From a virus (taxonomy: Duplodnaviria; Caudoviricetes), in the IMG/VR virus record IMGVR_UViG_3300037424_000434, positions 32,001-96,000 of that record: a stretch of DNA of 64,000 bases; one strand, written 5' to 3'. How positions within the stretch are numbered: position 1 is the stretch's first letter; each line of letters starts with the position of its first letter. The notes beneath the pieces are model-generated. The model was not told the DNA's origin. It was given only the letters and a program-made list of their open reading frames with translations, and searched no databases. This document shows positions 2,879 through 61,666 of the stretch, in pieces. The translations under genes and the position numbers were made by a program.

Positions 2879-4105
2879 ATGACCCCAGTATTGATCGAAA
2901 GCATGTTGGACACTGATCTATACAAGCTTACTATGTGGCAAGCAATGTTCCACAAGTACACCTCAGCAAACACCAAATGGCGATTTAAAGCGCGTAAAGG
3001 AAATGGTTTCCCAAAAAACGGAACATCCGATACTGATTTCCTGTTGGCTCTAAACCAAAGCCTTGATCATCTATGCACTCTGGGGTTTCTCCCAGAAGAT
3101 CTCACATACCTACGTAACCTACGAACAAAAAATGGTACATTGTTGTTTAAGGATGATTTTCTGGAATATCTGCGATTGTTCAAATATAACAGGGAGTATA
3201 TACACGTCTCCGTTGCGGTGGATGGATCATTGGATATTGTCTTGGATGGTCCATGGATGGCTGTTACTGGGCTTGAGGTGCCTGTGCTTGCTATAGTATC
3301 CGAATTGCATAGCATGACCAAGTTTCAGGGTTCAACCCTTCCAGAAGGTAAATCAAGGCTGAAGGAGAAGATTTCTTTTCTGAAAACGAAAGACTCTATG
3401 GGTAAGTTGGCTGGATTTGCTTTTGCTGACTTTGGTACTCGTCGGAGATATAGCTTTAAGTGGCAAAACTATGTATTAGCCGAACTTGTTAAGGAGTTAT
3501 CTCTTGGTGTTCTGGTTGGCACCTCTAATGTATATTATGCCCGGAAGTATAATCTAACTCCAATTGGTACTATGGCTCATGAATTCATACAATGCTTTCA
3601 ACAGCTTGGTGGTCGGTTGGTCGATAGCCAGAAAGCCGCACTTGAGGCATGGGTGCAAGAATATAGAGGCGAATTAGGCATTGCTTTAACTGACACTGTT
3701 GGATTTGATGCTTTTCTGCGAGACTTTGACCTGTACTTTGCCAAACTCTTTGATGGGTGCCGTCATGACAGTGGTGACCCCCAAATATGGTGTGAAAAAC
3801 TTATTGCTCACTATCGAAAGATGGGTATTGACCCAAAAACCAAGACAGCGGTTTTTTCTGATGGGCTTGATTTCGAATTGGCTTATAACTTGTACTACAT
3901 GTTTCGTGACTTTATCAAGGTGAGTTTTGGTATTGGTACCAACCTCATGAATGATATGGGATGTGATGCAATCAGCATTGTGTTAAAGGTGGTCATGCTC
4001 AATGGTGCTCCGGTTGCAAAAGTATCAGATAGCAGGGGCAAGGGAATGTGTGAAGACCCCGAATATGAGTCTTACGTAAACAAAGTGTTTGGGATTGGAG
4101 GTTAG
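2879..4105 (+). CDS. pncB: Nicotinate phosphoribosyltransferase
   Basis: LDTDLYKLTM, DFGTRRRYS, GTSNV, GTMAHE, RHDSGDP, FSDGL, FGIGTNL, KVSD..GK motifs. Confidence 0.95.
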   Translation: MTPVLIESMLDTDLYKLTMWQAMFHKYTSANTKWRFKARKGNGFPKNGTSDTDFLLALNQSLDHLCTLGFLPEDLTYLRNLRTKNGTLLFKDDFLEYLRLFKYNREYIHVSVAVDGSLDIVLDGPWMAVTGLEVPVLAIVSELHSMTKFQGSTLPEGKSRLKEKISFLKTKDSMGKLAGFAFADFGTRRRYSFKWQNYVLAELVKELSLGVLVGTSNVYYARKYNLTPIGTMAHEFIQCFQQLGGRLVDSQKAALEAWVQEYRGELGIALTDTVGFDAFLRDFDLYFAKLFDGCRHDSGDPQIWCEKLIAHYRKMGIDPKTKTAVFSDGLDFELAYNLYYMFRDFIKVSFGIGTNLMNDMGCDAISIVLKVVMLNGAPVAKVSDSRGKGMCEDPEYESYVNKVFGIGG

Positions 4106-4107
4106 TC

Positions 4108-4305
4108 ATGAAAGCATTTGATGAGATGACCGAAAGTGACCTTGAGGCAATCGCGCGTCTTGCCATTAGTACCTCAACTGTGGTACAGTGGGTCTGTGAA
4201 GCATGTTTGCCTGACATTCACAAGGCATTCAATGCAGGACAACCAGAGCATCACAAATGTGAGGTCTGTTTTAAACCCCGAAAATGTTATGAGGTGTTAT
4301 GTTGA
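4108..4305 (+). CDS. Small Zn-ribbon-like hypothetical protein
   Basis: CEAC...CEVC; follows GGAGG RBS. Confidence 0.55.
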   Translation: MKAFDEMTESDLEAIARLAISTSTVVQWVCEACLPDIHKAFNAGQPEHHKCEVCFKPRKCYEVLC

Positions 4306-4529
4306 GTGAATATACTGGTGGTGTTATTGATTCGTTTACTAAAGTGGTTGTGTGCAAGGATTATTTGGATGGTACTAGTCAGGTATTATTCAGAGGTCTA
4401 GCACAAGATGTACATCAATTCATAGAAGAAAATATGAGTGTTTATTGTGATGACATAATGAATGGTCAGCTTTTTGTAATGACTCTTGAGAATTTCACAA
4501 AAGACGCTACTAACGTAACATATAATTAG
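4299..4529 (+). CDS. Hypothetical protein
   Basis: Operon position, GAGGTG RBS. Confidence 0.55.
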
Positions 4530-4543
4530 GAGATCCCAAACAA

Positions 4544-4990
4544 ATGAACATTCCAATGTATCCAAGAAATCCATACTTGACAGTTGATGCTGTTGTACTA
4601 AGATATGCACCCGATGAGTTTGGATGGTTTGCGCCCGAAATTCTATTGGTGAAACGCAAACGCGAACCCATAGGATGGGCTTTGCCCGGTGGGTTTGTTG
4701 ATTACGGGGAATCAACCAAATCAGCGATTATCAGGGAACTTAAAGAGGAAACCGGTTTAACAGTGAAAAACACTCCCGAGCTACTTTGTGTTAGATCAGA
4801 TCCTGACCGTGACCCCAGACAACACACTGTATCAGTGGTGTATCTATTTAACTACTACGAGGGAGAACTGAAAACGAACGACCCCGACGAGGTTGACGAT
4901 ATTAAGTTTTTTCCCTTATCAGAGTTGCCTGATATGGTGTTTGACCACAAAGAAATTCTGAACCTCCATTTGGACTGGATTGGTAGATGA
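4544..4990 (+). CDS. Nudix hydrolase, ADP-ribose pyrophosphatase-like
   Basis: Nudix box [24 protein letters not shown]; RDPR motif typical of ADPR-ases and NrtR-like Nudix domains. Confidence 0.9.
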
Positions 4991-5562
4991 AAATTTTAAT
5001 TTATGGCGGAGCATTTGATCCCGTACATATGGGGCACCTTTCAGTGGCGGATAATGCCCAAACAATGTTTGGATATGACAGGGTGTTGTTTGTCCCCTGT
5101 TATTCATCGATGTATGGGAAAAAAATGGCATCTTTTACGAGCAGATGGGAAATGTTAACCCGCGCTATCAATGATTATAAAAACCCAACATTTCTTGTCT
5201 CTGCCGCCGAAAGGGAACACCCAATAGAAGGAAAAACCTATACTCTCCTTGAATACTTAAAAGTGAAATTTCGGGACATAAACGCCCAAATGGACATATT
5301 GATTGGGTCTGATACCTTAAAACACATCCAGAACTGGTATGAGTTTGAGAAGATAAACGATGAATATGTGTTTATTGTGATGGAGAGATACGGATATCCC
5401 ATCGAAAGTAAGGTGTTAAAGAGAGCGTTCTATGCTTCCTTTCATAACGATTTCGAGATATCATCGACCACAACAAGACATCAACTAAAAACCGTTGGAA
5501 CCAGTTCATTGGTGCCACAAACCGTTGAAAAATATATCAAGGAAAACAACTTATATATCTAA
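4987..5562 (+). CDS. nadD: Nicotinate-nucleotide adenylyltransferase
   Basis: [11 protein letters not shown] (HxGH), [20 protein letters not shown]. Confidence 0.92.
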
Positions 5563-5638
5563 TGCACTGAATACAGATGTTATATTTGAAAAAACGGTAC
5601 TTTATATAAAGAAGTACCCAATATACGGAGGTACAAAA

Positions 5639-6487
5639 ATGCACAAAATTTCTACGGAATATGAGAAAATGTTTAACAATATCACCCAAACCTTTGCTGA
5701 ATACCTAACCAAGCATGATATCAGGACAGTGGTTCTTGGTGTTAGTGGTGGGGTAGATTCGGCGTTAATTGCTGCACTGGCGTTAAACACCAAACCATTG
5801 CTAAGTTTTCCCCTTAACATCATTGGTCGATCTATTACCATTGATAGCAATAAACCAGACGAGATTGCCCGTGCAAAGGCAATTGGTGAGTTGTTCTGTG
5901 ATGACTTCAAAGAACTTGACTTAACCTATGCTTATGGTAACCTGAAGTATTTGATTGAAGCACCAACATTTGTTTCGGTTAATGATAAATTAAATCAAAA
6001 TTTAACGGCAAAAGAGCTTGCTATTGCTAATGGGAACATAAAAGCACGGATTCGAATGATTCAATTATATCACCTTGCTGGTATAAATAAGGGCATGGTC
6101 TTAAGCACCGACAACCTCACAGAGCTTTACATGGGCTTCTGGACCTTGCACGGTGATGTGGGTGATTATGGTATGATCCAAAATCTCTGGAAGACCGAGG
6201 TTTATGGTCTTACTAAACATATAGCCGCAATTTATGACAAAACAGGTGCTAGGGAATGGGGTAGTGCCCTGAGAGCATGTGTAAGAGCCGTGCCAACAGA
6301 TGGTCTTGGTATTACTAATTCGGACCTTGACCAACTGGGAGCGAGGACATATGAAGATGTTGATAGTATCATAATCGACTATTTAAACACAAAACGCGGG
6401 AAACATCCGGTTATTGATCGATATGAAGCAACTCACTATAAGAGGACAAATCCAGTGCATATCCCTCGAAAGGAGATTTTATCATGA
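5639..6487 (+). CDS. nadE: NH3-dependent NAD+ synthetase
   Basis: VLGVSGGVDSAL, GNIKARIRM, STDNLTE..GFWTLHGD, LWKTEV; ATG at 5639 after GGAGG; no glutaminase domain. Confidence 0.93.
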   Translation: MHKISTEYEKMFNNITQTFAEYLTKHDIRTVVLGVSGGVDSALIAALALNTKPLLSFPLNIIGRSITIDSNKPDEIARAKAIGELFCDDFKELDLTYAYGNLKYLIEAPTFVSVNDKLNQNLTAKELAIANGNIKARIRMIQLYHLAGINKGMVLSTDNLTELYMGFWTLHGDVGDYGMIQNLWKTEVYGLTKHIAAIYDKTGAREWGSALRACVRAVPTDGLGITNSDLDQLGARTYEDVDSIIIDYLNTKRGKHPVIDRYEATHYKRTNPVHIPRKEILS

Positions 6488-7005
6488 AAAAAGTATTAAT
6501 TGTTGTTGATATGCTTAACGATTTTATTGACAAAGATGGGGTGCTTTCGTTGGGTCAATCAGGTTTTGATATTGTACCGGTTATCGCTAGGAAAGTTTAT
6601 CTGGCAAGACGACAAGGAGACATGGTTCTGTACCTCAATGACGCTCATGATATTAACGACAAGGAGTTCAATAGATTTCCCTCCCATGCGGTTGTGGGTA
6701 CATGGGGGGCAGAGGTTATCCCGGAACTAACGCCGGTGGCGGGAGATATCATTATACCCAAAAAACGGTATAGCGGATTCTTTGGAACATGTCTACAGGA
6801 AACACTATCAACAGAAAACCCCGATATCATTGAGGTGTGTGGATGTTGCACAAGCATTTGTGTGGCAGGTACTATCGAAGAACTCGCAAACAGGGATTAT
6901 ACAGTGGTTGTTGACAGAAAAGCAGTTGCTGACTTTGATCAAGATGCGCACGAATTCTTTTTAGAATACCAATTTCCTCGTATCTTTGGAATTAATGTTC
7001 TATAA
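6484..7005 (+). CDS. pncA: Nicotinamidase (isochorismatase family)
   Basis: VVDMLNDF, DAH, HAVVGTWGAE, KKRYSGFFGT, GCCTSICV catalytic Cys; operon context. Confidence 0.88.
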   Translation: MKKVLIVVDMLNDFIDKDGVLSLGQSGFDIVPVIARKVYLARRQGDMVLYLNDAHDINDKEFNRFPSHAVVGTWGAEVIPELTPVAGDIIIPKKRYSGFFGTCLQETLSTENPDIIEVCGCCTSICVAGTIEELANRDYTVVVDRKAVADFDQDAHEFFLEYQFPRIFGINVL

Positions 7006-19592: not shown

Positions 19593-19826
19593 CTATATCA
19601 AGTCTTTGTCCCAGTTTTTGTCACCACTTGTCCACTTAAGATATGCTTCGTGGTCTTTTCCTGTTAACTCGAACGGGTCATCTTCGTTTGTATGGGCTGA
19701 TTCTATCTCAAACGCTAACCGGTATCTTATTGCGCCTTTAGCCCATTTCATATCATCACCAAATCGTTGAAGTAGGTTGCCTTTCTTTTCGATCAGATAT
19801 TTATTAGCTATTTCATTTATATCCAT
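19593..19826 (-). CDS. Putative internal head protein
   Basis: MDINEIANKYLIE leader. Confidence 0.6.
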   Translation of the reverse strand: MDINEIANKYLIEKKGNLLQRFGDDMKWAKGAIRYRLAFEIESAHTNEDDPFELTGKDHEAYLKWTSGDKNWDKDLI

Positions 19827-20052
19827 TAATCTCCCCAATATCTTTGATGATGTCAAATTCCATCTGTCTCAACTCTTTCAACATTGCTTTGATTTTTGGT
19901 TTGTATTTTGCTGGCAATAACTTGTGGTCAAGAATGGTATCCAACCCAAAAGTAGCATCTTCAAACATTTGCCCATATGCCTCTTCAACAACTTCTTGTT
20001 GAGGTGATTTCTTAGACTCACCCAATAAACATTCTCTTAATGTTTTGCTCAT
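19813..20052 (-). CDS. Putative internal head protein
   Basis: MSKTLRECLLGE leader; coupled in the late operon. Confidence 0.6.
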   Translation of the reverse strand: MSKTLRECLLGESKKSPQQEVVEEAYGQMFEDATFGLDTILDHKLLPAKYKPKIKAMLKELRQMEFDIIKDIGEINGYK

Positions 20053-20768
20053 CACGCATTCCTCTCATTTCCGACTGCATCCCCAAACGCTCTGGATAAC
20101 GCAATCAGTTCGTTTATTGGTAGATCAATACGCAATACATGTACATGCATTTTGGGCTTGAGGAGCATCCCCGACAACCATCTATGGTGTCCATCAATAA
20201 TAAAATCGTCTTGACTTACAATAAATACTGACTTCCCTAGGAATGCTATAGTGCTATCAACGGTTCTGCCATCAAGAGAATCAAGTACCTTTGATACATA
20301 TATCTGTTTCTGGATCGGTTTGAGTTTCCAAATGGCTTCGTGACCCTTCGTAACCCGAACAACATCGTCTTCTTTTCTGCCATTGTCTTTCTGTGGTTCA
20401 CCGGCACTTAACCATCCTTTTGCCCTACTTCCCTTTAGGCGCTCCGGAAACAATTCATCTTGGTCGGTGTCGGGTGAGAAGGGAGCATATATATCAATCT
20501 TACCTTTGGCCAAATGATCTTGGAGACTTTTAACATCACCAGAACTTATAACAGGCATATCTTTTCGTTTAGTGTGCCCCAAACTCGCCGACTGTTTAGC
20601 TTTCTCGTATTGATCATCAAACTCTGGAATCTCTTTGTCCAGTTCTTTGTTGTTTGATTTGAACATTTTTTCAAACATCATTCGTGCTTTTTCAAGGGGG
20701 GTATTAAGGATCTCAAGCGTTCCCGGTTTCTCCCCTCCACCCTCTATCAAATATTTAATAAATCTCAT
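20052..20768 (-). CDS. ParB/Srx-like domain protein with capsid-targeting-like leader
   Basis: FIIDGHHRWL; MRFIKYLIE; late promoter at 20793-20800. Confidence 0.7.
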   Translation of the reverse strand: MRFIKYLIEGGGEKPGTLEILNTPLEKARMMFEKMFKSNNKELDKEIPEFDDQYEKAKQSASLGHTKRKDMPVISSGDVKSLQDHLAKGKIDIYAPFSPDTDQDELFPERLKGSRAKGWLSAGEPQKDNGRKEDDVVRVTKGHEAIWKLKPIQKQIYVSKVLDSLDGRTVDSTIAFLGKSVFIVSQDDFIIDGHHRWLSGMLLKPKMHVHVLRIDLPINELIALSRAFGDAVGNERNA

Positions 20769-20843: not shown

Positions 20844-21599
20844 CTAGAGTTTCACTAATGGGATTTTGTTTTTCATTACAGCCATGGCTTTTTGTGGTAT
20901 CTGATGTTTGACGCTATGCTTGACGGAAGTATATACAATAGCAAGCACCAAATTGTATGTCGCTTTACCCAACCATGGAGCAGAAATAATACCGCCAGTG
21001 GCGAACAATAACAGAAGCATCAACCCCTCCGGAGACATGAAAAGCTTTTCCAAACTATACTTTCCGGCTAATGCTAATGCTATGTTACTGAAGTCAAAAT
21101 CATAATCCATGTTTCCAATGAACGTCATATTCAACCATATAAAAAACAACAGTCCAGCCACGGCGGGGCCAGTCACTTTTGCTAAAAGGGGATGTTCGAT
21201 GATAAATTCGTCCATCTTCTTCGCACCTGATGTTGTCTGTTGAAATGCCCCTGTTTTGTGTAAATGCTTAAATACATCCAATAATCCTTGTTGCAGAAGA
21301 CCTGAGAATTTATTTATGGATTTGATCAGCTTGGTCAAACTCCATCCAATAGATTTAAACAAGTCAAACAGAGATTTGTTTTTGAGAGCATCCACAATAT
21401 CACCAACTCCAATTTGAAAATCAGTGCCTATGGAAAATAATTCGTCTTTTATGGGAGTAATTATCTTTTTTACAGCCGCGTTTTTTATGTCACGAAGAAC
21501 ATCGACCACTCCTTCGTTGGTGCCGAATACCGTGTCAACAGCATAACAATAGTCATCAAAGGTAATGTTTTGCTCTGTTATGTATCTATTAAACTGCAT
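20844..21599 (-). CDS. Hydrophobic protein with capsid-targeting-like leader
   Basis: MQFNRYITE; several TM-like segments in the C-half. Confidence 0.7.
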   Translation of the reverse strand: MQFNRYITEQNITFDDYCYAVDTVFGTNEGVVDVLRDIKNAAVKKIITPIKDELFSIGTDFQIGVGDIVDALKNKSLFDLFKSIGWSLTKLIKSINKFSGLLQQGLLDVFKHLHKTGAFQQTTSGAKKMDEFIIEHPLLAKVTGPAVAGLLFFIWLNMTFIGNMDYDFDFSNIALALAGKYSLEKLFMSPEGLMLLLLFATGGIISAPWLGKATYNLVLAIVYTSVKHSVKHQIPQKAMAVMKNKIPLVKL

Positions 21600-24829: not shown

Positions 24830-25288
24830 ATGAGACTACAACGTTACCTACAAGAAAAATATTTCAATACCATTGGTGGGTCAGGTACCGGCCAATATGA
24901 AATATTCCTCAATCCTGACCGCAAAGAATACAATGACCTGAAAATGAATTCAGCATATGGTGTTAGATTCATTCTCGACTTCAAAAACAAAAACTTTTAT
25001 GTCTTCCCTGCCGCAACCTTTCACGAGAGAGCCTTTAAGGTCATACGAGGGTTTCCCACTTTCGACAAATTCTGGGATAAAGGAGAAGGGATTGAGTGGA
25101 TATTGACCGGGGATTATTATGTTGCGGGTGATAAATACGGATCTGATGCATTAAATATGTTTGGTAAATTCCCCGGATATGACAAAAAATTAGAAATTTT
25201 GTTGAAGCAAGATTTCTCGTGGGCAAAAAGATATATTGACATACCAACGATAAAGAAATTAATAGAAGACGCTATACACAAGGAGTGA
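24830..25288 (+). CDS. Putative internal head protein, NP..E paralog family
   Basis: MRLQRYLQE; EIFLNP..E...RF..D.K.K.FY. Confidence 0.75.
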   Translation: MRLQRYLQEKYFNTIGGSGTGQYEIFLNPDRKEYNDLKMNSAYGVRFILDFKNKNFYVFPAATFHERAFKVIRGFPTFDKFWDKGEGIEWILTGDYYVAGDKYGSDALNMFGKFPGYDKKLEILLKQDFSWAKRYIDIPTIKKLIEDAIHKE

Positions 25289-26012: not shown

Positions 26013-26378
26013 ATGAGGTTTGCCCAATATTTGACAGAAGAGATGAGATAGGAAACAAAGAAATATGATGGGGATTTTCCGTGGAAAAGTGATGTATATC
26101 CCGATTTGATCATTAAAGTATGGAATGAATCCAAAATTATTGCATTAATTTATGCAACAAAACTTTCAACTACAGGTATTCAGGTTGAATATGCCGTAAT
26201 ACTTGATGAAAAGATGAGAGGAAAGGGTGTCTATACAGAAATCATATCTCATTTAAACAAACAATATGAGATTGTATCGGACGAAGATAGCAATAACTCA
26301 GCAAAAGAAATATATAAAAAACTGGGAGCAGATTACCAACGAGGTAGATATGTTCTTAAAAGAGGTACAGTGAAATGA
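26013..26378 (+). pseudogene. GNAT-like protein with capsid-targeting-like leader, interrupted by an in-frame TAG
   Basis: MRFAQYLTEEMR-TAG(26049-51), frame continues to MRGKGVYT...SAKEIYKKLG. Confidence 0.65.
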
Positions 26379-26653
26379 GATTAGAAAAACTTATAAATGA
26401 GGGGCTGTTTAACAACAAGAAAAGACAGGCTCTCATTGAATCTATTCCCGAAATCAGAGAATTAGAATTCACCAAGCATCAACATCAAACCTTTGAACTG
26501 TGTCCATCGTGGATCGAACGACTTGAACAAAAGGGAATAAACGAAACCTTGTTTAAAAAGAGACAACAATTGGTTGCAACTATTCACAGGAAAATAGATG
26601 AGTCTGATCTAACAGAAAAAGACAAAGAGAACTTGAAAAAGAGGTATTCATGA
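26375..26653 (+). CDS. Putative internal head protein
   Basis: MRLEKLINE; overlaps the upstream stop. Confidence 0.7.
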   Translation: MRLEKLINEGLFNNKKRQALIESIPEIRELEFTKHQHQTFELCPSWIERLEQKGINETLFKKRQQLVATIHRKIDESDLTEKDKENLKKRYS

Positions 26654-26913
26654 AATTACGGAAATATTTAACTGAAGACAAAGAATTTGCACAATACTTG
26701 TTCGGTCAACTAGATTCCAGAGCCAATGATCTTAAAAGAGGTGTATCCAAAGGATCAATGCTTGCCGCAGAATTTGCGGATATGACGAAAAGTGATAAAT
26801 TAAAGTTTTTTAATGAAAAAGTTATACCCTTGTACCGTAAACACAGATCACCAGAGAAATGGTCGGAAGAATTGCATTTATTTATACGAAACGTTTTTGG
26901 GGAATTGTCATGA
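26650..26913 (+). CDS. Putative internal head protein
   Basis: MKLRKYLTE; ATGA coupling. Confidence 0.7.
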   Translation: MKLRKYLTEDKEFAQYLFGQLDSRANDLKRGVSKGSMLAAEFADMTKSDKLKFFNEKVIPLYRKHRSPEKWSEELHLFIRNVFGELS

Positions 26914-27410
26914 AATTTCAACGTTACCTACAAGAAGAATATGTAGATACTGTTGTATATAAACAATATCAATCAGAATTATTCGTCAATCCATCCCGGA
27001 GTGAGTTGACGGATTTAAAAGACGCTTCTCCCGGTGGATATCGGTTTGTGGTTGACACCAAATACAAAAAAATCTATATGGTTTCAAGTGAAATTTTACA
27101 TGAGGATCTGTTTGAAATAAAACCCAATTTATTGCCAAACTTCGATTTTGCCGATTATTACACCAAAGGATTGAATACTGACAGGGTTTTTACTGGAAGT
27201 GGGGAGTGGGGCAAAAAAATTATATCTGATTCATGGAGTATTCATGGGGATATACAACGATACGCAGGCAATGATAAAACTGTAAAAAAGATGACAAAAC
27301 TCTATAATACTGATATGACATGGATTAACCGATACATACCCCAAAAAGACATTAAGGAAATAATAGACAAGCTAATAAAAAGGATTGAGAGTTTTCCCAA
27401 AAAATACTGA
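26910..27410 (+). CDS. Putative internal head protein, NP..E paralog family
   Basis: MKFQRYLQEEY...ELFVNPSRSEL. Confidence 0.75.
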   Translation: MKFQRYLQEEYVDTVVYKQYQSELFVNPSRSELTDLKDASPGGYRFVVDTKYKKIYMVSSEILHEDLFEIKPNLLPNFDFADYYTKGLNTDRVFTGSGEWGKKIISDSWSIHGDIQRYAGNDKTVKKMTKLYNTDMTWINRYIPQKDIKEIIDKLIKRIESFPKKY

Positions 27411-31755: not shown

Positions 31756-32022
31756 ATGTTAGAAAAAGGGGATATTGTATACTTTACATCCGAACGTATT
31801 AAGAGAGCTCAAATTGATAAAAACAACCCCAATAGAGCAGATCAATATATACTGAAAAACGCCTACAAAAAATGTATCGTTGATCGTGTCTCATATTGGG
31901 ATAATAAAAGACATATCCGATTAGTCGGTTATCGAAGAGTGTATAATGAAAACTCTTTGACCAAAATAAAACCACCATCACCCTCACAATACATGTTAAA
32001 CAAAGAATTGTTCGTTTTATGA
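31756..32022 (+). CDS. Small SH3-like protein with LF tail
   Basis: MLEKGDIVYF; ends YMLNKELFVL. Confidence 0.7.
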   Translation: MLEKGDIVYFTSERIKRAQIDKNNPNRADQYILKNAYKKCIVDRVSYWDNKRHIRLVGYRRVYNENSLTKIKPPSPSQYMLNKELFVL

Positions 32023-33135: not shown

Positions 33136-33594
33136 ATGAAATTTAAACAATTTATTAATGAAAAATATCTTACCACCTTCTCCAATGCCGGAAATAACAT
33201 CGAAGTCTTCCTTAACCCCTCATCCAAAGAACTTAGAGATATTCCCTCCTTCCCCGCATATAGATTCTTGATCAATTTCAAAACTAAAGAATTCTATGCT
33301 TGGCATGTCAACACCTTCCACGATAACATTATGGACTTTGTCTCTTCCAAAAATCTTGCAAAATTTCCCAAGTTTAAAGAATATTGGTATGGTCACAAAA
33401 ATAATGACTACATCTTTACTGGTTCTGTTGACCCGGATGGCTCCGTTTACTCTGATCATATGTATACTCTGAAAAAAGATGGCGATAACCTCAAATTACT
33501 TAAACATGACTTCTCTTGGCTTAAACACTTCATTAATATCAACAAACTTAAAGATCTACTCCTTGCTGATGATATACATATTGTCGATGATTAA
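33136..33594 (+). CDS. Putative internal head protein, NP..E paralog family
   Basis: MKFKQFINE; TATAAATA at 33091-98. Confidence 0.78.
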   Translation: MKFKQFINEKYLTTFSNAGNNIEVFLNPSSKELRDIPSFPAYRFLINFKTKEFYAWHVNTFHDNIMDFVSSKNLAKFPKFKEYWYGHKNNDYIFTGSVDPDGSVYSDHMYTLKKDGDNLKLLKHDFSWLKHFININKLKDLLLADDIHIVDD

Positions 33595-34665: not shown

Positions 34666-35118
34666 ATGAGACTATATAACTATCTATATGAACGGTACCT
34701 AACATCTGTTGAAACTAACCACAATATGGAAATATTCCTTAATCCATCTGCGGAAGAATTAAGAAGTATACCCTCCTTCCCAGAGTATAGATTCTTAATC
34801 AATTTTAAAACTAAAGAATTCTATGCTTGGCATGTCCAAATGTTCCATGTATCTGCTATGGATTGGATACGACATGAACATCTCTCCTTATTGCCAGACT
34901 TTAATCAATACTGGAATGGTAAAAATAATGACTTTTTGTTCACTGGTTCTGTTGATCCAGATAAAACAATACACTCTGATCTCATAACTAGTGTTATAGA
35001 AAATGGCGATAATCTCAAATTACTTAAATTTGACTTCAAATGGATGAAACAATATATCGATATTAAAGAACTCGAATATCTATTGCTACATGGTGATAAA
35101 AAGAAAAAATGGCGATAA
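34666..35118 (+). CDS. Putative internal head protein, close paralog of 33136
   Basis: MRLYNYLYE; shared IPSFP.YRFLINFKTKEFYAWHV; TATAAATA at 34522-29. Confidence 0.78.
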   Translation: MRLYNYLYERYLTSVETNHNMEIFLNPSAEELRSIPSFPEYRFLINFKTKEFYAWHVQMFHVSAMDWIRHEHLSLLPDFNQYWNGKNNDFLFTGSVDPDKTIHSDLITSVIENGDNLKLLKFDFKWMKQYIDIKELEYLLLHGDKKKKWR

Positions 35119-36535: not shown

Positions 36536-36703
36536 ATGAAATTCAATGAATATCTTACTGAAGGGTATAATAGAAGAACGGTTGACAAGGCGATCAACAT
36601 GTTTTTTGATATGTTGGATAAAAAGGAAACGTCAAATCAAGACATACAAGATCATATCGAATGGATAGTTGCTGAACTAAAATTACAAGCAAAACATAGA
36701 TAA
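36536..36703 (+). CDS. Putative internal head peptide (55 aa)
   Basis: MKFNEYLTE; GATAAATA at 36495 and AAGGAG RBS. Confidence 0.7.
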   Translation: MKFNEYLTEGYNRRTVDKAINMFFDMLDKKETSNQDIQDHIEWIVAELKLQAKHR

Positions 36704-51305: not shown

Positions 51306-51613
51306 TGATTTGCCCTCAATATAGGTATACTATAAACCCCCTTTGGTTTATTGTCAATAAAAAACACAAATAAGTGATTATCAATCTTTTACTTTTTAAA
51401 AAACTTTTCTTTTAAAAGATCCACAATTTTTGTTTGAATCTCTGTTAAATTTTTTCCAAAGTTCGGAAATATCGCATAAACAACAGCCGTTCCCACGAAA
51501 CCTAATACCAGAGTACCTAAATATGATAACATAAACTACCTCCTACAAAAAAATAAGTCCAAAATTATTTATGTTTTATTTAGGTTTTTGGCTACAACAT
51601 AATCGACTTCAAC

Positions 51614-51975
<362 letters not shown>

Positions 51976-51979
<4 letters not shown>

Positions 51980-52378: not shown

Positions 52379-52675
52379 TCAAGGTAGTTTTCTGTTTTGG
52401 GGTTTCATCGTTTCCATGGTATCATATTGTGTTGGCCCAGTTTTCCTCTTATTCCAAGGAATGACAGCACGGGCATACAACCTAGACCACAACCTATTAA
52501 AACCTTTGCTGTAATAGGTGGGTAGTTCAACCCGAGGGCCACATGAATGACATTCGTCACATTGCACGGCATAGACTCCCCCACTATATATACCGAAATA
52601 GGCTTGTCCTCCGCAATGAGGGCATGGTTTTACTCCCTTAGTGAATCGAAACACTTTAATTCCTATCCCAAACAT
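52379..52675 (-). CDS. Lar-family restriction-alleviation-like zinc ribbon
   Basis: KPCPHCGG...VQCDECHSCG...A..PWN.R. Confidence 0.65.
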   Translation of the reverse strand: MFGIGIKVFRFTKGVKPCPHCGGQAYFGIYSGGVYAVQCDECHSCGPRVELPTYYSKGFNRLWSRLYARAVIPWNKRKTGPTQYDTMETMKPQNRKLP

Positions 52676-53760: not shown

Positions 53761-53790
53761 AAGGGAGATTAATAATCTCCCTTTTTTTAT
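53761..53790. terminator. Bidirectional terminator
   Basis: aaagggagatt/aatctcccttt plus T-run. Confidence 0.7.
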
Positions 53791-54200
53791 ATTATATTTT
53801 TAAAATCTTCGATAGCAACCGCAATTCCCGGTAACCATTTCTTGGTCCATAACCAATCAGTTTTCGTCCAAACAGCCAATTCCCGATCATTCATGAAAAC
53901 AAGAGAATTCAAATCGATTTCCCCTAGAAACATTTCGCCCGGCATCAACGATCCACTATAAGGAGATACCCTGCTATCACCTGATTCTTTTCTAACCAAA
54001 TCCCATATAGCATTATGCAATGCATTGTGAGCATTTGCTATGTAAATCTTTTTGGTTTTCCCGTCAGCAATAAATCGAACATCCCGTCCTATCTTTTGGA
54101 GTTCCTGTCTGGATGGATTAACCCATAAATCAAACTCATTGCCATGATATCTGGAATACCCAAACCATTCCTCTTCTAAGTAACGTTTAAATTTACTCAT
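53787..54200 (-). CDS. Putative internal head protein, NP..E paralog family
   Basis: MSKFKRYLEEEW...LWVNPSRQEL...VRFIAD.K.KKIY. Confidence 0.72.
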   Translation of the reverse strand: MSKFKRYLEEEWFGYSRYHGNEFDLWVNPSRQELQKIGRDVRFIADGKTKKIYIANAHNALHNAIWDLVRKESGDSRVSPYSGSLMPGEMFLGEIDLNSLVFMNDRELAVWTKTDWLWTKKWLPGIAVAIEDFKNII

Positions 54201-55093
54201 ATATTTTTTCCCCACTTATCAGCCAAATATAACAAGAAATCTTTAGCAGAACTAACTTTTGCCAGTTTAAACATTTTCAATAACATTGCGGTAAATTTAA
54301 CATCCGATTTATCGTTGTGTATATCAGCTTCCAATGATGACAAATAATCCTTGAAATAGAAAGCAGTAGCACTCATTCCTGCGATCTTATATGCTATATC
54401 ACTTGCTCTTTTTGAAAGCTTCTCTTTGTCTGTGGTATAAAACAGTTCTTCCCATATCTTAAAATAATTGGTACGAGGAAATTCTTTGCGATACTCCACC
54501 TTCGCTAGTGGCTTTAAATCATCTATATTCACTTTAACTGAATTTTTTTTATTCTGAATCAAAAAATCTTTTTTGTCCTCATAAAAATATATTGGGATTT
54601 TTTTAATCAAAGCATTTTTATATATTGAACGAATGTTTCTGTTTCTAGGGTCGGTTTGGTCTATCCAGCTCCAATTAAACTTAATAGGAACTAACACATG
54701 AATTTCTTTTATGTATTTTGAGGCATTGTCTATCTGAGGCGTCTTGCTGTAGATCCTATCTTCTGCTTCGAATTTCTTTGGATCAATCTTCCTAAACTCT
54801 GGTCCCCAATAATCAACTGCTTCCCCTGAATATTTGTTCGCTAATTTAGATCCATCCAATACCAACATAGCGGTACCCTCTGCTGGATCTAAGCTGAACC
54901 CACCAAGTTTATGTCTAGTTGTGGAGAAATAAAAAAATTTGCCCTTTTTGCTTAGATCAGTTTCGGTGCTCGTTCCAATTGAGGTACTTAGATTGAATTT
55001 ATCTGTCCTCAATATAGCATCCAGTTTGTATATTCCTGTTGAGTGGTATAGGATAGAACTGATACCTTCTATTAAATATTTTTGTAATCTCAT
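54197..55093 (-). CDS. Probable ADP-ribosyltransferase with capsid-targeting-like leader
   Basis: MRLQKYLIE; LYHST (strand-1 His), FYFSTTR, LVLD, EAEDRI (ExE). Confidence 0.6.
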   Translation of the reverse strand: MRLQKYLIEGISSILYHSTGIYKLDAILRTDKFNLSTSIGTSTETDLSKKGKFFYFSTTRHKLGGFSLDPAEGTAMLVLDGSKLANKYSGEAVDYWGPEFRKIDPKKFEAEDRIYSKTPQIDNASKYIKEIHVLVPIKFNWSWIDQTDPRNRNIRSIYKNALIKKIPIYFYEDKKDFLIQNKKNSVKVNIDDLKPLAKVEYRKEFPRTNYFKIWEELFYTTDKEKLSKRASDIAYKIAGMSATAFYFKDYLSSLEADIHNDKSDVKFTAMLLKMFKLAKVSSAKDFLLYLADKWGKNI

Positions 55094-55110
55094 TAATATA
55101 TCCTTTTAAC

Positions 55111-55149
55111 AAAAAAATCCCGTTAACTATATTTATAAATTAACGGGAT
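55111..55149 (-). terminator. cca terminator with a late promoter in its loop
   Basis: atcccgttaa/ttaacgggat stem and T7 on the minus strand; TATAAATA at 55130-37. Confidence 0.75.
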
Positions 55150-57220: not shown

Positions 57221-58945
57221 TTACTTAGGAATCTTGGTGGTAGTATTGCCTTCGTTACCTTGACGTGAATAACCGTCTCCAAAATCAGCTTTGTTGTAAC
57301 AAGTTCCTGCTACCCAAACATGTCCAGCAGCGGTACATGTTGCTTGTGTAGTCAATGTGGTTACGTCTTGAGCGGCAACACAAGTACGAAGAACTGGTTT
57401 CCAGTCATAACCCATTTGTTGACATACAGTGGCGGCATAATCTTGTGCGCTACTGTTTGTGGTGTATGCAAAATTTGCCAAGCTAAAGTTATCAGCAACT
57501 GCTTCTATGCAGCGGCTACCATTCGCGGCTTTGGGCTCGTACCAGTTACCACCTGCAACACACTGCTCACGAGCAACCTTGGATGTGATAGTTCCAGCTA
57601 ATTCGTTTGTGTTAACGGTCCCAAATGCAACGGTCACACAGTTACCACCAGAGTGAACATATCCAGCGGGGCAGTCGGCTGTTACCAATGCATCACCAGC
57701 GAGTTCAGCCGCCGTTTTCTCGCGACAGAAACCATACGATTCACGGTTTCCTGCTTGTGCTGTAGTTGTGTCCCATACAAACCGAGACGTAACACCATCG
57801 GATAGATAAACAGCCACGCAACGATATTCATCTGTGATATCCTCTGCGCGAATGGTATTACCAACAACCTCACCATAAGCGTTTACGGTAGTTGGTTCGG
57901 AGAACACAGTGATAGTTCCGTTGTCGATGGTGCGTTTTTGAACTTGAAGTTGTTGTTGATCAGCTTTGCGAACAACCGTGACGGTGGGGTCGTTGTCGGA
58001 ATTTGACCCAACATAAACACCAGTGGCGACTTGGTTCAGTTTGCGAGAAACAAATACTGTATTCTCATTTCCATCAGAATATCCTGTACCAGCACCGCCC
58101 ACGGTTAAAGTAAGAACCGTTCCAAGGGCGTCCACGGTAGCAACTACACCTGTACCAGCAACACCCCCGGAGATAGCAACAACATCGCCTACGCGATAAT
58201 TGTATCCACCATCAACAGCGGTAAGTGTGTCAATAACCCCAAGGGTTTCGGCTACAGTAACAACAAGACCATTACCTGTCTTATATTCTTCAATCACACC
58301 ACCAAGTTCATATTGGTTGTGGTTGTAGTAAGAAACTGGATCAGCTATACCAACTTCTCCTGTGCCGATATAAGTTACGGTTTCTGCATCAGCAGTTACA
58401 TAACCGGTTCCGCCATCAACAACAGTGAACGCCGAAACAACACCGCCTGTCTCGGGTGTATCACCAACCAAAGCCGAGGCAGTGACAGTACCAGTAATAC
58501 CCGACCCAAGAAGATCGGATGACGTTTCGCTAGCAGAAACAACATCACCGGTAATCCAACCGGTTCCGCCAACAGTAACAGTGGTTGTAGCGGCTTGACC
58601 GACAATAGTAGCAACTGTTGTATCAAGCGAACCTGTTCCCAGTGAAGAGAAATCCACATTTTCTACTAAAACGATTGTGTCTGTAGCAACATAACCTGTG
58701 CCAGCAGTAACAATAGAAAGTGTTGGAACTAAAAGAGCGTCAATTGTAACGGCGACGGTACATCCTGTCCCCGAACCACCACTTGTAGTTGCATAACCAA
58801 GTCCAGTGTTATCATAAGTTCCTTCTACCAGAACACCGTTTGCGTTATCCACGGTTGCTGCAAGAGTTGCTGGGATACCAGTTAACGTGGTAACCGTAAA
58901 CTCAAATGCTGTTACTGGTCTTGCTTGTTTTAATCCAAGAGCCAT
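57221..58945 (-). CDS. Thr/Gly/Val-rich virion-type protein with GGTGY repeats and a Cys-rich C-terminus
   Basis: Repeated GxGY motifs; C..[AM]G..W repeats; GGAGG RBS. Confidence 0.7.
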   Translation of the reverse strand: MALGLKQARPVTAFEFTVTTLTGIPATLAATVDNANGVLVEGTYDNTGLGYATTSGGSGTGCTVAVTIDALLVPTLSIVTAGTGYVATDTIVLVENVDFSSLGTGSLDTTVATIVGQAATTTVTVGGTGWITGDVVSASETSSDLLGSGITGTVTASALVGDTPETGGVVSAFTVVDGGTGYVTADAETVTYIGTGEVGIADPVSYYNHNQYELGGVIEEYKTGNGLVVTVAETLGVIDTLTAVDGGYNYRVGDVVAISGGVAGTGVVATVDALGTVLTLTVGGAGTGYSDGNENTVFVSRKLNQVATGVYVGSNSDNDPTVTVVRKADQQQLQVQKRTIDNGTITVFSEPTTVNAYGEVVGNTIRAEDITDEYRCVAVYLSDGVTSRFVWDTTTAQAGNRESYGFCREKTAAELAGDALVTADCPAGYVHSGGNCVTVAFGTVNTNELAGTITSKVAREQCVAGGNWYEPKAANGSRCIEAVADNFSLANFAYTTNSSAQDYAATVCQQMGYDWKPVLRTCVAAQDVTTLTTQATCTAAGHVWVAGTCYNKADFGDGYSRQGNEGNTTTKIPK

Positions 58946-59030
58946 AATTTTTCCTCCAAATATTTGTATTATATATAACCCAAAAGGGTTCTTGCTTCTA
59001 TTTATGATATGAAAAATATTTTCCAGAATT

Positions 59031-59303
59031 TTAGTTGGACAAAATCTCATATAATGTCATGGTAATATTGACGTTTTCGGGTTTCCAGCCCATTTCGTCC
59101 GAAATATAAAAGGCGATAATTTTAGGCAAAGACAAGTTTGGATTACCGAAATCTATTTTGTACACATCTTCTGGCGAAAGATTTGTCTCGTGACATGCAA
59201 TTGTTTCCGCTAACTGTATTAAAGTGATATCTTTTGGTATCTGTTTATATGAAATGTTCCATTCTTTTTTTATGATATTTTTAAGCTGTCTCATCCCAGA
59301 CAT
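59031..59303 (-). CDS. Hypothetical protein
   Basis: AGGAG RBS. Confidence 0.55.
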   Translation of the reverse strand: MSGMRQLKNIIKKEWNISYKQIPKDITLIQLAETIACHETNLSPEDVYKIDFGNPNLSLPKIIAFYISDEMGWKPENVNITMTLYEILSN

Positions 59304-61459: not shown

Positions 61460-61666
61460 TCACTCCACCCGGAAGTATTCTTTTAATTTTTTCTTGGGTT
61501 TCTTTTTCTTTTTTGTTATAATGTTTTTTCTTTTTTCGAGTTTTTCTATATCCATTGTATTTGTACCGGGATTGATTCCTATAACCCCGTCAGCCCCAGC
61601 ACCTGATCCAACAGTTCCTGCGCCGTCCTCATCAAGGATATAGTTTATTCTGTCCAAGATGTCCAT
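61460..61666 (-). CDS. Small internal-protein-like peptide with Lys-rich tail
   Basis: MDILDRINYILDE, Gly-rich middle, KKKKKPKKK. Confidence 0.65.
   Translation of the reverse strand: MDILDRINYILDEDGAGTVGSGAGADGVIGINPGTNTMDIEKLEKRKNIITKKKKKPKKKLKEYFRVE

Follow-up and report, generated by a model that had tools for sequence, protein, structure and literature searches.

A gene encoding a protein with an ADP-ribosyltransferase (ART) fold lies on the minus strand, at 54197-55093, of a 64,000-nucleotide stretch of viral DNA that comprises positions 32,001 to 96,000 of the IMG/VR record IMGVR_UViG_3300037424_000434 (hereafter the window). The record belongs to an uncultured T4-like phage of sediment origin (235,765 bp, 98% complete, 39% G+C), and its genome holds one copy of the gene. 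The single open reading frame (ORF) starts with MRLQKYLIEGISSILYHST and specifies a basic product with an isoelectric point (pI) of 9.4. Structure prediction and conservation suggest that this product belongs to a large, uncurated viral ART family with a hybrid active site and a C-terminal domain of its own, which Aravind et al. may already have named in their 2015 survey of ART families. On balance, we lean toward a reading in which the protein is made late, tagged with a leader, injected, and directed at a host macromolecule. We infer each step of this reading, from NAD+ use through packaging, cleavage, and injection to the target, from the genomic and modeled features described below and collected in Table 1.

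Fold and Active Site

An AlphaFold2 model of the whole protein, built from an 80-sequence alignment, reached a predicted local distance difference test score (pLDDT) of 91.9 and a predicted template modeling score (pTM) of 0.88. When the model was compared with 48,161 chains in an exhaustive VIA-align fold search, the top solved neighbor was the NAD+ lobe of yeast Tpt1 (7yw4, Z 10.5, root-mean-square deviation 2.6 over 111 residues). DarT chains (7yk3, 7omv, 7omu, and 8baq) were also among the best matches with Z scores of 9.1-7.8, the individual values being 9.1 for M. tuberculosis, 8.6 for Thermus, 8.3 for Thermosipho DarTG, and 7.8 for E. coli DarT1. Below Tpt1 and DarT came many ART toxins and PARPs (Z 3.5-6.7), and ARTs filled about 45 of the top 50 rows. 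Foldseek against the PDB placed DarT, Tpt1/KptA, or CC0527 (DUF952) in each of its first 23 rows, with E-values that are weak (1e-2 and above) yet with a probability of about 1.0 in the first rows, and the neighbors of the protein in the ESM Atlas include DarT, DUF2971, and DUF952 clusters. The matches span residues ~3-182, and the model leaves little doubt that residues ~10-182 adopt an ART fold, which has a split beta-sheet core with helices following the strands and an NAD+ site made up of strands 1, 2, and 5. The initial annotation of this gene had proposed such a fold from motifs in the sequence and had named a Foldseek comparison with ART folds as a check. With DarT and Tpt1/KptA at the top and an AlphaFold2 structure of the ART type, that comparison came out in favor of the proposal.

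The motifs behind the proposal are all present and in the order that was given: MRLQKYLIE (residues 1-9), LYHST (15-19), KLDAIL (23-28), F33, FYFSTTR (54-60), AMLVLD (75-80), and EAEDRI (109-114). They had been read as a strand-1 His, a Ser/Thr-rich strand 2, and an ExE motif at strand 5, and each falls on the strand that had been guessed and is conserved in the family. The relevant strands of the AlphaFold2 model comprise residues 14-20 with H17, 54-59 with Y55 and S57, 74-80, and 111-116, the last of which is opened by E111, with E109 in the preceding loop. Conservation was scored across 80 homologues sharing 29-65% identity with the window protein. Five residues (S57, R60, E109, E111, and R113) were invariant and nine more (H17, T19, F33, L35, D94, Y95, W96, D112, and H132) were conserved in at least 90% of the sequences, so the motif pattern is not a product of chance. 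Position 55 is Tyr or Phe across the family.

A sequence comparison points in the same direction as the fold. With a profile made from 21 archaeal Tpt1 sequences, hhalign gave a weak match to the family (E 0.0036, probability 9%) that covers the NAD+ lobe alone. In this weak alignment ILYH17ST pairs with ILYHGT of Tpt1, Y55-F-S57 with H-L-S, and LVLDG with FMIDA, which puts Y55 opposite the strand-2 His of Tpt1 and agrees with the register expected from the fold. DarT2 belongs to the H-Y-[EDQ] clade of ARTs with residues Y71 and E160 (PMC11543638). Two features of that clade, H17 on strand 1 and E111 at the start of strand 5, are found in the window protein, and the site can be read as H / Y(F) / E in the pattern of the clade plus the S-T-T and ExE elements that are usual in the R-S-E clade. 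E111 is the presumed catalytic Glu. We consider it quite probable that the protein is an active NAD+-using enzyme.

The remainder of the protein is predicted to form a helical domain. Modeled alone, this C-terminal domain found no fold match among the 48,161 chains, and its top Z of 4.5 lies under the noise level that the tool states for helical models. Kinship of region 172-235 with RpbA, the T4 RNA polymerase-binding protein, was considered and set down to chance: the profile E-value of 0.085 rose to 0.62 with the C-terminal profile alone, and RpbA was absent from the fold search.

An Uncurated Viral Family

Curated collections did not recognize the protein. Pfam, PHROGs, and NCBIfam gave no match to it at E-values up to 0.1-1, phmmer and profile searches against PDB sequences returned nothing significant, and the region had no megablast match among cultured phages. 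Relatives are nevertheless abundant; phmmer against 1.84 billion cluster representatives (50% identity) returned 1,573 at E <= 1e-3 and 134 at E <= 1e-30. Precomputed Pfam domains were listed for 85 relatives, and in none of these does a family cover the ART-fold domain; the few that are named are called hypothetical protein. The same label is attached to all homologues in cultured phages, which are ~30% identical and come from Alishewanella Slicko01 (WGH49661) and Slickus01, Salicola SCTP-2, the Dickeya JA11 group (JA11_137/138), Vibrio 6E35.1a-like, Pseudomonas Lu11 (Lu11_0206), and Salmonella Sen-NF. The p0068-like family, which was described from Escherichia, Shigella, and Salmonella phages, is probably a different one; tblastn gave no match in Escherichia or Shigella phages.

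A pattern-based scan that took one genome from each of 185,579 prokaryote species matched a single locus. The match (L083/G001, JAOZSQ010000001.1) is a 427-kb contig in a metagenome-assembled genome of a Thermoplasmatota archaeon, with an ART homologue that is 40% identical. Because a T4-type gp23 gene is present in the same genome bin, the contig most likely comes from a giant phage that was binned wrongly. The family is accordingly essentially viral, and its median pI is 9.44.

The ART-fold domain also occurs as a module of giant polyvalent proteins, where it is accompanied by ART-PolyVal, Nudix, GNAT, 2H/Acb1, NT5C, deaminase, cytidylyltransferase, and Cu/Zn superoxide dismutase domains. 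In one of them (P0021) the family domain occupies residues 672-953 and ART-PolyVal residues 971-1128, and ART-PolyVal is likewise a separate domain in two others (P0047 and P0048). Polyvalent proteins, which occur in phages and conjugative elements, are predicted to be delivered along with the DNA (Iyer et al. 2017, PMC5512222). A polyvalent protein of 1,140 residues (L057:2757-6176) combines a cytidylyltransferase-like domain, DUF5661, and Cu/Zn superoxide dismutase with this ART-fold domain.

Relation to Known ART Groups

The window protein was compared with four known ART groups. For each group a defining feature was tested and found to be absent, and the protein therefore lies outside Alt/VIP2, DarT, Tpt1, and ART-PolyVal. 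Alt of T4 offers the most parallels in setting. Like Alt, the window protein has an apparent T4-type late gene, an ART fold, a short putative N-terminal propeptide ending in L/I-x-E, and S-T-T and ExE motifs, and it likely modifies host molecules as infection starts. In the terms of Alt/VIP2, which belong to the R-S-E clade, S57-T-T serves as the S-T-S-type motif on strand 2 and E109-x-E111 as the ExE before strand 5. In contrast to that group, however, the window protein has a His in place of the Arg on strand 1, a different C-terminal domain, and no match to PF03496 (Pfam, E up to 1). With Tpt1 and DarT as the nearest folds in addition, kinship with Alt is not supported, and the protein would be at most a functional analogue.

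DarT1 and DarT2 are the guanine/thymine ARTs of single-stranded DNA that belong to DarTG toxin-antitoxin systems. The resemblance to DarT extends over ~140-147 residues and includes what can be read as an H-Y-E-type arrangement, with a presumed catalytic Glu at strand 5, and a basic character. PF14487, however, does not match, identity is 8-15%, and STTR, ExEDR, and the C-terminal domain are foreign to DarT. The genome, moreover, has no DarG, Macro, or NADAR partner for the protein, which would be phage cargo, whereas DarT is the toxin of DarTG. The RNA 2'-phosphotransferase Tpt1/KptA, a two-lobed enzyme with an Arg-His-Arg-Arg tetrad, is the best fold match and shares the ILYHGT-like and H-L-S-like segments of the weak hhalign alignment. 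In contrast to Tpt1/KptA, the window protein lacks the N-terminal RNA lobe (its ART domain begins at about residue 10) and the Arg-His-Arg residues, and PF01885 does not match. Tpt1 belongs to the H-H-h clade and is not known to have an invariant strand-5 Glu, whereas such a Glu marks the family of the window protein. As for ART-PolyVal (PF18760), members of both families are found inside giant multi-effector polypeptides that are predicted to be delivered with DNA. The two are nevertheless separate domains, PF18760 does not match the window protein, the ART-PolyVal site is H-Y-D rather than H-Y/F-E with STTR and ExEDR, and the window protein is free-standing.

Leader and Head Packaging

The capsid-targeting sequence (CTS) of T4 is MKTYQEFIAE (PMC8442874). 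T4 gp21 cleaves after L/I-x-E, a propeptide of 7 residues is lost from the N-terminus of Alt, and CTS-like sequences are found on more proteins in other T4-like phages (PMC9026906). The window protein begins with a leader that resembles a CTS, and the 236-kb genome encodes both a gp23-type T4 major capsid protein (PF07068, E 1e-106) and a T4 gp21-type prohead protease (PF03420 match). The protease frame (genome C1:104577-106289, beyond the window) is 570 residues long and was matched by PF03420 as two separated pieces, a split that points to a large insertion, perhaps an intein or some other element.

The leader is not confined to the ART gene. Its strict form, M[RKQ][FL]xx[YFHL][LI]xE at an ATG, occurs 14 times in a six-frame translation of the genome, and 13 of these occurrences, the ART gene included, open ORFs of at least 50 residues. 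Beyond the first 30 codons of an open frame the strict form was never found, and it is absent from the reversed genome. Its bearers are proteins of 55-298 residues that look unrelated apart from the ART and a family of ~140-residue paralogues, and the five leader-bearing ORFs that were scanned have no Pfam family. Looser variants of the leader, MSKFKRYLEEE and MKYHTYLNE, are also present in the genome. A second common N-terminal leader, of the type MDIL(D/N)(K/R)I....(L/I)xE, stands on several small ORFs (61460-61666 and 19593-19826, both on the minus strand, and genome C1:13054, 14017, and 28165). Like the T4 internal proteins IPI-III with their CTS, many unrelated and mostly basic proteins of this phage have a leader of ~9-10 residues with a Met, basic and hydrophobic or aromatic residues, and L/I-x-E. 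They differ from IPI-III in the leader sequence, M[RK][FL]xx[YF][LI]xE, and in a putative cargo that is predicted to be an enzyme.

Related phages show similar starts. Among 75 related IMG/VR loci, which were found from a 6-sequence alignment, many homologues start with MRATEFLIER, MRINEILTEG, or MQIKELITES, and ART genes sit in gene arrays in which each gene starts with MRxxE(F/L)..E. A loose leader pattern was present on 18 of 43 ART ORFs in related loci versus 36 of 422 background ORFs. Packaged phage ARTs are already known as a class (PMC5512222 and PMC9503650). Virion packaging, as claimed in the initial annotation, thus has indirect backing from the leader on 13 ORFs, the gp23 and gp21 genes, the late-promoter motif, and the members in polyvalent proteins, and these features make the protein a probable head component; the packaging itself we infer.

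Late Expression

The T4-type late-promoter motif TATAAATA is present as an exact copy 36 nt before the ATG of the ART gene. Across the window the motif occurs 15 times versus 6.6 expected, a count that none of 100 shuffles reached, and several copies stand 12-44 nt upstream of start codons. The late promoter that had been ascribed to the gene is thereby upheld at the level of sequence. The copy before the ART gene forms part of the loop of a hairpin that looks like the intrinsic terminator of the upstream gene, which encodes a CCA-adding enzyme. A late transcript begun a few bases past TATAAATA would lack the 5' arm of this hairpin and so escape termination, and the compact arrangement of terminator and promoter would stop read-through and restart late transcription. 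Many related phages (L025-L028, L030, L033, L035, L037, L039, L068, and L079) have (A/T)AAATA(C/T) just 3-7 nt before the ATG of the ART gene. This is too near the ATG for a normal 5' leader and could reflect a different promoter type or leaderless mRNAs.

Proposed Mechanism and Alternatives

In the mechanism that we propose, the ART gene would be transcribed late from its own TATAAATA promoter, and the 9-residue leader would direct the protein to the core of the prohead in the manner of the T4 CTS. The gp21-type protease would trim the leader after L7-I8-E9, and the mature protein would be ejected together with the DNA. In the new host it would bind NAD+, release nicotinamide with the help of H17, Y55, and E111, and pass ADP-ribose to a host macromolecule during takeover or counter-defense. 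Given a fold that is closest to Tpt1/KptA and DarT and a uniformly basic family, we rank a nucleic-acid target (a DNA base or an RNA/DNA end) slightly above a protein target. The most specific version of this proposal is a tentative one: the phage may inject a DarT/Tpt1-like enzyme that ADP-ribosylates host nucleic acid, either DNA bases or RNA/DNA ends such as those of tRNA, at the onset of infection while its own Preiss-Handler pathway recycles the by-product.

Several observations weigh against a packaged, nucleic-acid-directed ART. The only sequence link to any ART is the hhalign match to Tpt1 at its probability of 9%, curated ART profiles being without a match, and the preference for nucleic acid draws on fold neighbors and charge alone. 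The late-promoter motif is only ~2.3-fold enriched in an AT-rich genome. The ART gene stands among RNA-repair-type genes (CCA-adding enzyme, Ro60, and RtcB) and not among head genes. Finally, fused internal copies of the domain keep (L-x-)E/A-G-(I/L)-S before strand 1, and 19 of 31 keep L-x-E. As this motif is kept inside fusions, the last residues of the leader double as the beginning of the domain, and L-I-E-G is partly a domain feature and not solely a cleavage site; the L-x-E of fused copies could represent inter-domain protease sites or a structural cap.

The foremost alternative shares the packaging evidence in full and differs in the target. The protein could be a true analogue of Alt, a packaged and injected ART whose targets are host proteins (RNA polymerase or translation factors, for example), which it would modify on Arg or some other side chain by means of its ExE motif. 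The precedent is T4 Alt itself (PMC5512222, PMC9026906), R-S-E ARTs that modify proteins and Arg carry the same STT and ExE motifs, and the role is free in this genome, where profile searches found no Alt/VIP2 homologue, just as they found no ART-PolyVal or KptA. Related phages also combine the two kinds of enzyme, an effector context that suits the preferred reading as well: a gene family whose representative (L046) encodes a fusion of Nudix with ADPrib_exo_Tox, an Alt-type ART, is present in 13 of the 75 related loci, and in L046 it lies directly upstream of the ART-family gene. The structure argues in the other direction. In addition to the strand-1 His and the silent PF03496 profile described above, protein-modifying ART toxins match the model at only Z 3.5-5.5 versus 8-10.5 for DarT and Tpt1, and the weak C-terminal match to RpbA fell to the level of chance. 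We regard a protein-directed Alt analogue as less likely, but as a serious rival.

A second alternative, which we consider improbable, is that the protein acts on a small molecule as an NADase, an NAD+ phosphorylase, or a maker or destroyer of an ADP-ribose-derived immune signal. ART-fold NADases and phosphorylases exist (PMC9503650), and the family is fused to the nucleotide-acting domains Nudix, 2H/Acb1, and NT5C. The investment of the phage in NAD+ salvage can be counted both for and against this reading, as injection of an NADase would be an unlikely course for a phage that restores NAD+. A macromolecular partner is suggested by the basic surface, which is conserved, and by the additional C-terminal domain, and NADases of the RES/TNT type gave no structural match above Z 4.1.

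Still less probable is an unpackaged, cytoplasmic KptA/Tpt1-like enzyme, an NAD+-dependent phosphotransferase that would repair cleaved tRNA together with the CCA-adding enzyme, RtcB, and Ro60. The Tpt1 NAD+ lobe is the best solved neighbor, the ART gene adjoins that of the CCA-adding enzyme with Ro60 and RtcB in the window, and the genome has no KptA of its own. Such a role is opposed by the missing RNA lobe and Arg-His-Arg residues, by the lack of a PF01885 match, and by the invariant strand-5 Glu, which is not known as a feature of Tpt1. RtcB ligation, in addition, is not known to leave a 2'-phosphate. Both the leader and the polyvalent fusions speak rather for delivery, and the gene for the CCA-adding enzyme is not beside the ART gene in the closest relative. 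That the protein is catalytically inert, a structural or DNA-binding internal head protein, is very improbable despite its basic character, which T4 internal proteins share, and the existence of pseudo-ART domains such as that of TASOR, as five charged or polar residues at canonical ART positions are invariant in the 80 homologues, which is the pattern of an active enzyme.

NAD+ Salvage

A further claim of the initial annotation was that the ART could be part of a cycle in which ADP-ribose is written, erased, and recycled. The recycling part is reasonable because nicotinamide is a by-product of every ART reaction, and the window encodes a complete Preiss-Handler-type route from nicotinamide to NAD+ with a Nudix gene, although ~48 kb from the ART gene and on the opposite strand. 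The operon might equally serve to counter NAD+-depleting host defenses. The eraser, by contrast, found no candidate: profile searches of the 236-kb genome detected no Macro (PF01661), NADAR (PF08719), or ADP-ribosylglycohydrolase, and the controls for the Macro and NADAR profiles were positive. A looser link to Nudix is kept alive by relatives in which the family domain is fused to, or lies beside, Nudix domains.

Genomic Neighborhood

The gene downstream of the ART gene encodes a 137-residue protein that has no match in Pfam, PHROG, or NCBIfam and no usable match in the Atlas. It belongs to a paralogous family of leader-tagged proteins, 137-166 residues long, with a conserved E..(F/L/V)NP(S/D)..E motif and one invariant His. 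Members of this family flank the ART gene in L081, the closest relative found, whose ART is 64% identical. The gene order there is Ro60, a 90-residue gene, a 587-residue protein, genes of 100 and 151 residues, the ART, and genes of 141 and 142 residues. Neighbors of the ART gene are otherwise not conserved. Since the CCA-adding enzyme gene, which lies upstream of the ART gene in the window, is not at that position in L081, we do not read it as a functional linkage.

Other features of the region were noted in passing. A 609-residue ORF rich in Thr, Gly, and Val (57221-59050, minus strand) is 58% identical to the 587-residue protein of L081. That relative starts at the equivalent of residue 36 (MALG...), so the true start of the ORF is probably the ATG at 58945. 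The L081 protein has a faint Gp18_dom_I record. At 51571-51979 a long coding repeat of the dinucleotide type reads (EP)n on the minus strand, within a 121-residue ORF with a Cys-rich N-terminus, and (GS)n, (QN)n, or (LV)n in other frames. A 98-residue protein (52379-52675, minus strand) matches the restriction alleviation protein Lar (PF14354, E 1e-6).

Table 1. Features of the ART gene, its surroundings, and related leader-bearing genes (window coordinates unless another source is named)
Feature	Coordinates	Strand	Remarks
ART-fold gene (protein P0001)	54197..55093	minus	single ORF, 298 residues; stop included in coordinates
Leader MRLQKYLIE, residues 1-9	55067..55093	minus	ends L-I-E (gp21-type L/I-x-E); resembles capsid-targeting sequence
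ART-fold domain, residues ~10-182	54548..55066	minus	AlphaFold2, VIA-align, and Foldseek
Strand-1 motif L-Y-H17-S-T19	55037..55051	minus	H17 and T19 at least 90% conserved; in register with Tpt1 ILYHGT (hhalign)
S57-T-T-R60, end of strand 2	54914..54925	minus	aromatic Y55 just before; S57 and R60 invariant
E109-A-E111-D-R113, ExE-type, start of strand 5	54755..54769	minus	E109, E111, and R113 invariant; D112 at least 90% conserved
C-terminal helical domain, residues 183-298	54200..54547	minus	conserved motif (A)DIH-N260; modeled alone, pLDDT 93.3
Shine-Dalgarno-like AAAGGA	55101..55106	minus	7 nt before ATG
TATAAATA, T4-type late-promoter motif	55130..55137	minus	exact, 36 nt upstream of ATG
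Hairpin (putative terminator)	55110..55149	minus	12-bp stem, 9-nt loop with TATAAATA, U7 run; -18.5 kcal/mol, z -2.6
Downstream 137-residue gene, leader MSKFKRYLEEE	53787..54200	minus	ATGA overlap, translationally coupled to ART gene
Family of the 137-residue protein, window	24830-25288(+), 26910-27410(+), 33136-33594(+), 34666-35118(+), 53787-54200(-)	as given	
Paralogues of the 137-residue protein, L081	7546-8001, 8899-9324, 9321-9749		flank ART gene
Leader-bearing ORFs	20052-20768, 20844-21599, 53787-54200, 54197-55093	minus	candidate head cargo
Leader-bearing ORFs	24830-25288, 26375-26653, 26650-26913, 26910-27410, 33136-33594, 34666-35118, 36536-36703	plus	candidate head cargo
Leader-bearing ORFs beyond window	genome C1:10620, 14717, 122934		candidate head cargo
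Preiss-Handler-type nicotinamide-to-NAD+ operon	2879-7005	plus	NAPRTase PncB, Nudix, NadD/NMNAT-like cytidylyltransferase-like, NadE, PncA-like isochorismatase-family

Conclusions

The active site of this family mixes two ART clades, with a strand-1 His alongside STT and ExE elements, and the family is closer to DNA- and RNA-directed than to protein-directed ARTs. The leader on 13 ORFs also offers an easy way to list the proteins that are probably head cargo of this phage. If the enzyme is active and injected, it would give a testable handle on how T4-like and jumbo phages act on the host in the first seconds of infection and would show whether phages, too, make use of the nucleic-acid ADP-ribosylation that is directed against them. 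Should the nucleic-acid reading be true, it would represent an offensive phage use of chemistry known mainly from bacterial anti-phage toxins, and the more than 1,500 cluster representatives would amount to a major unrecognized class of nucleic-acid modifiers that T4-like and jumbo phages deliver from the head.

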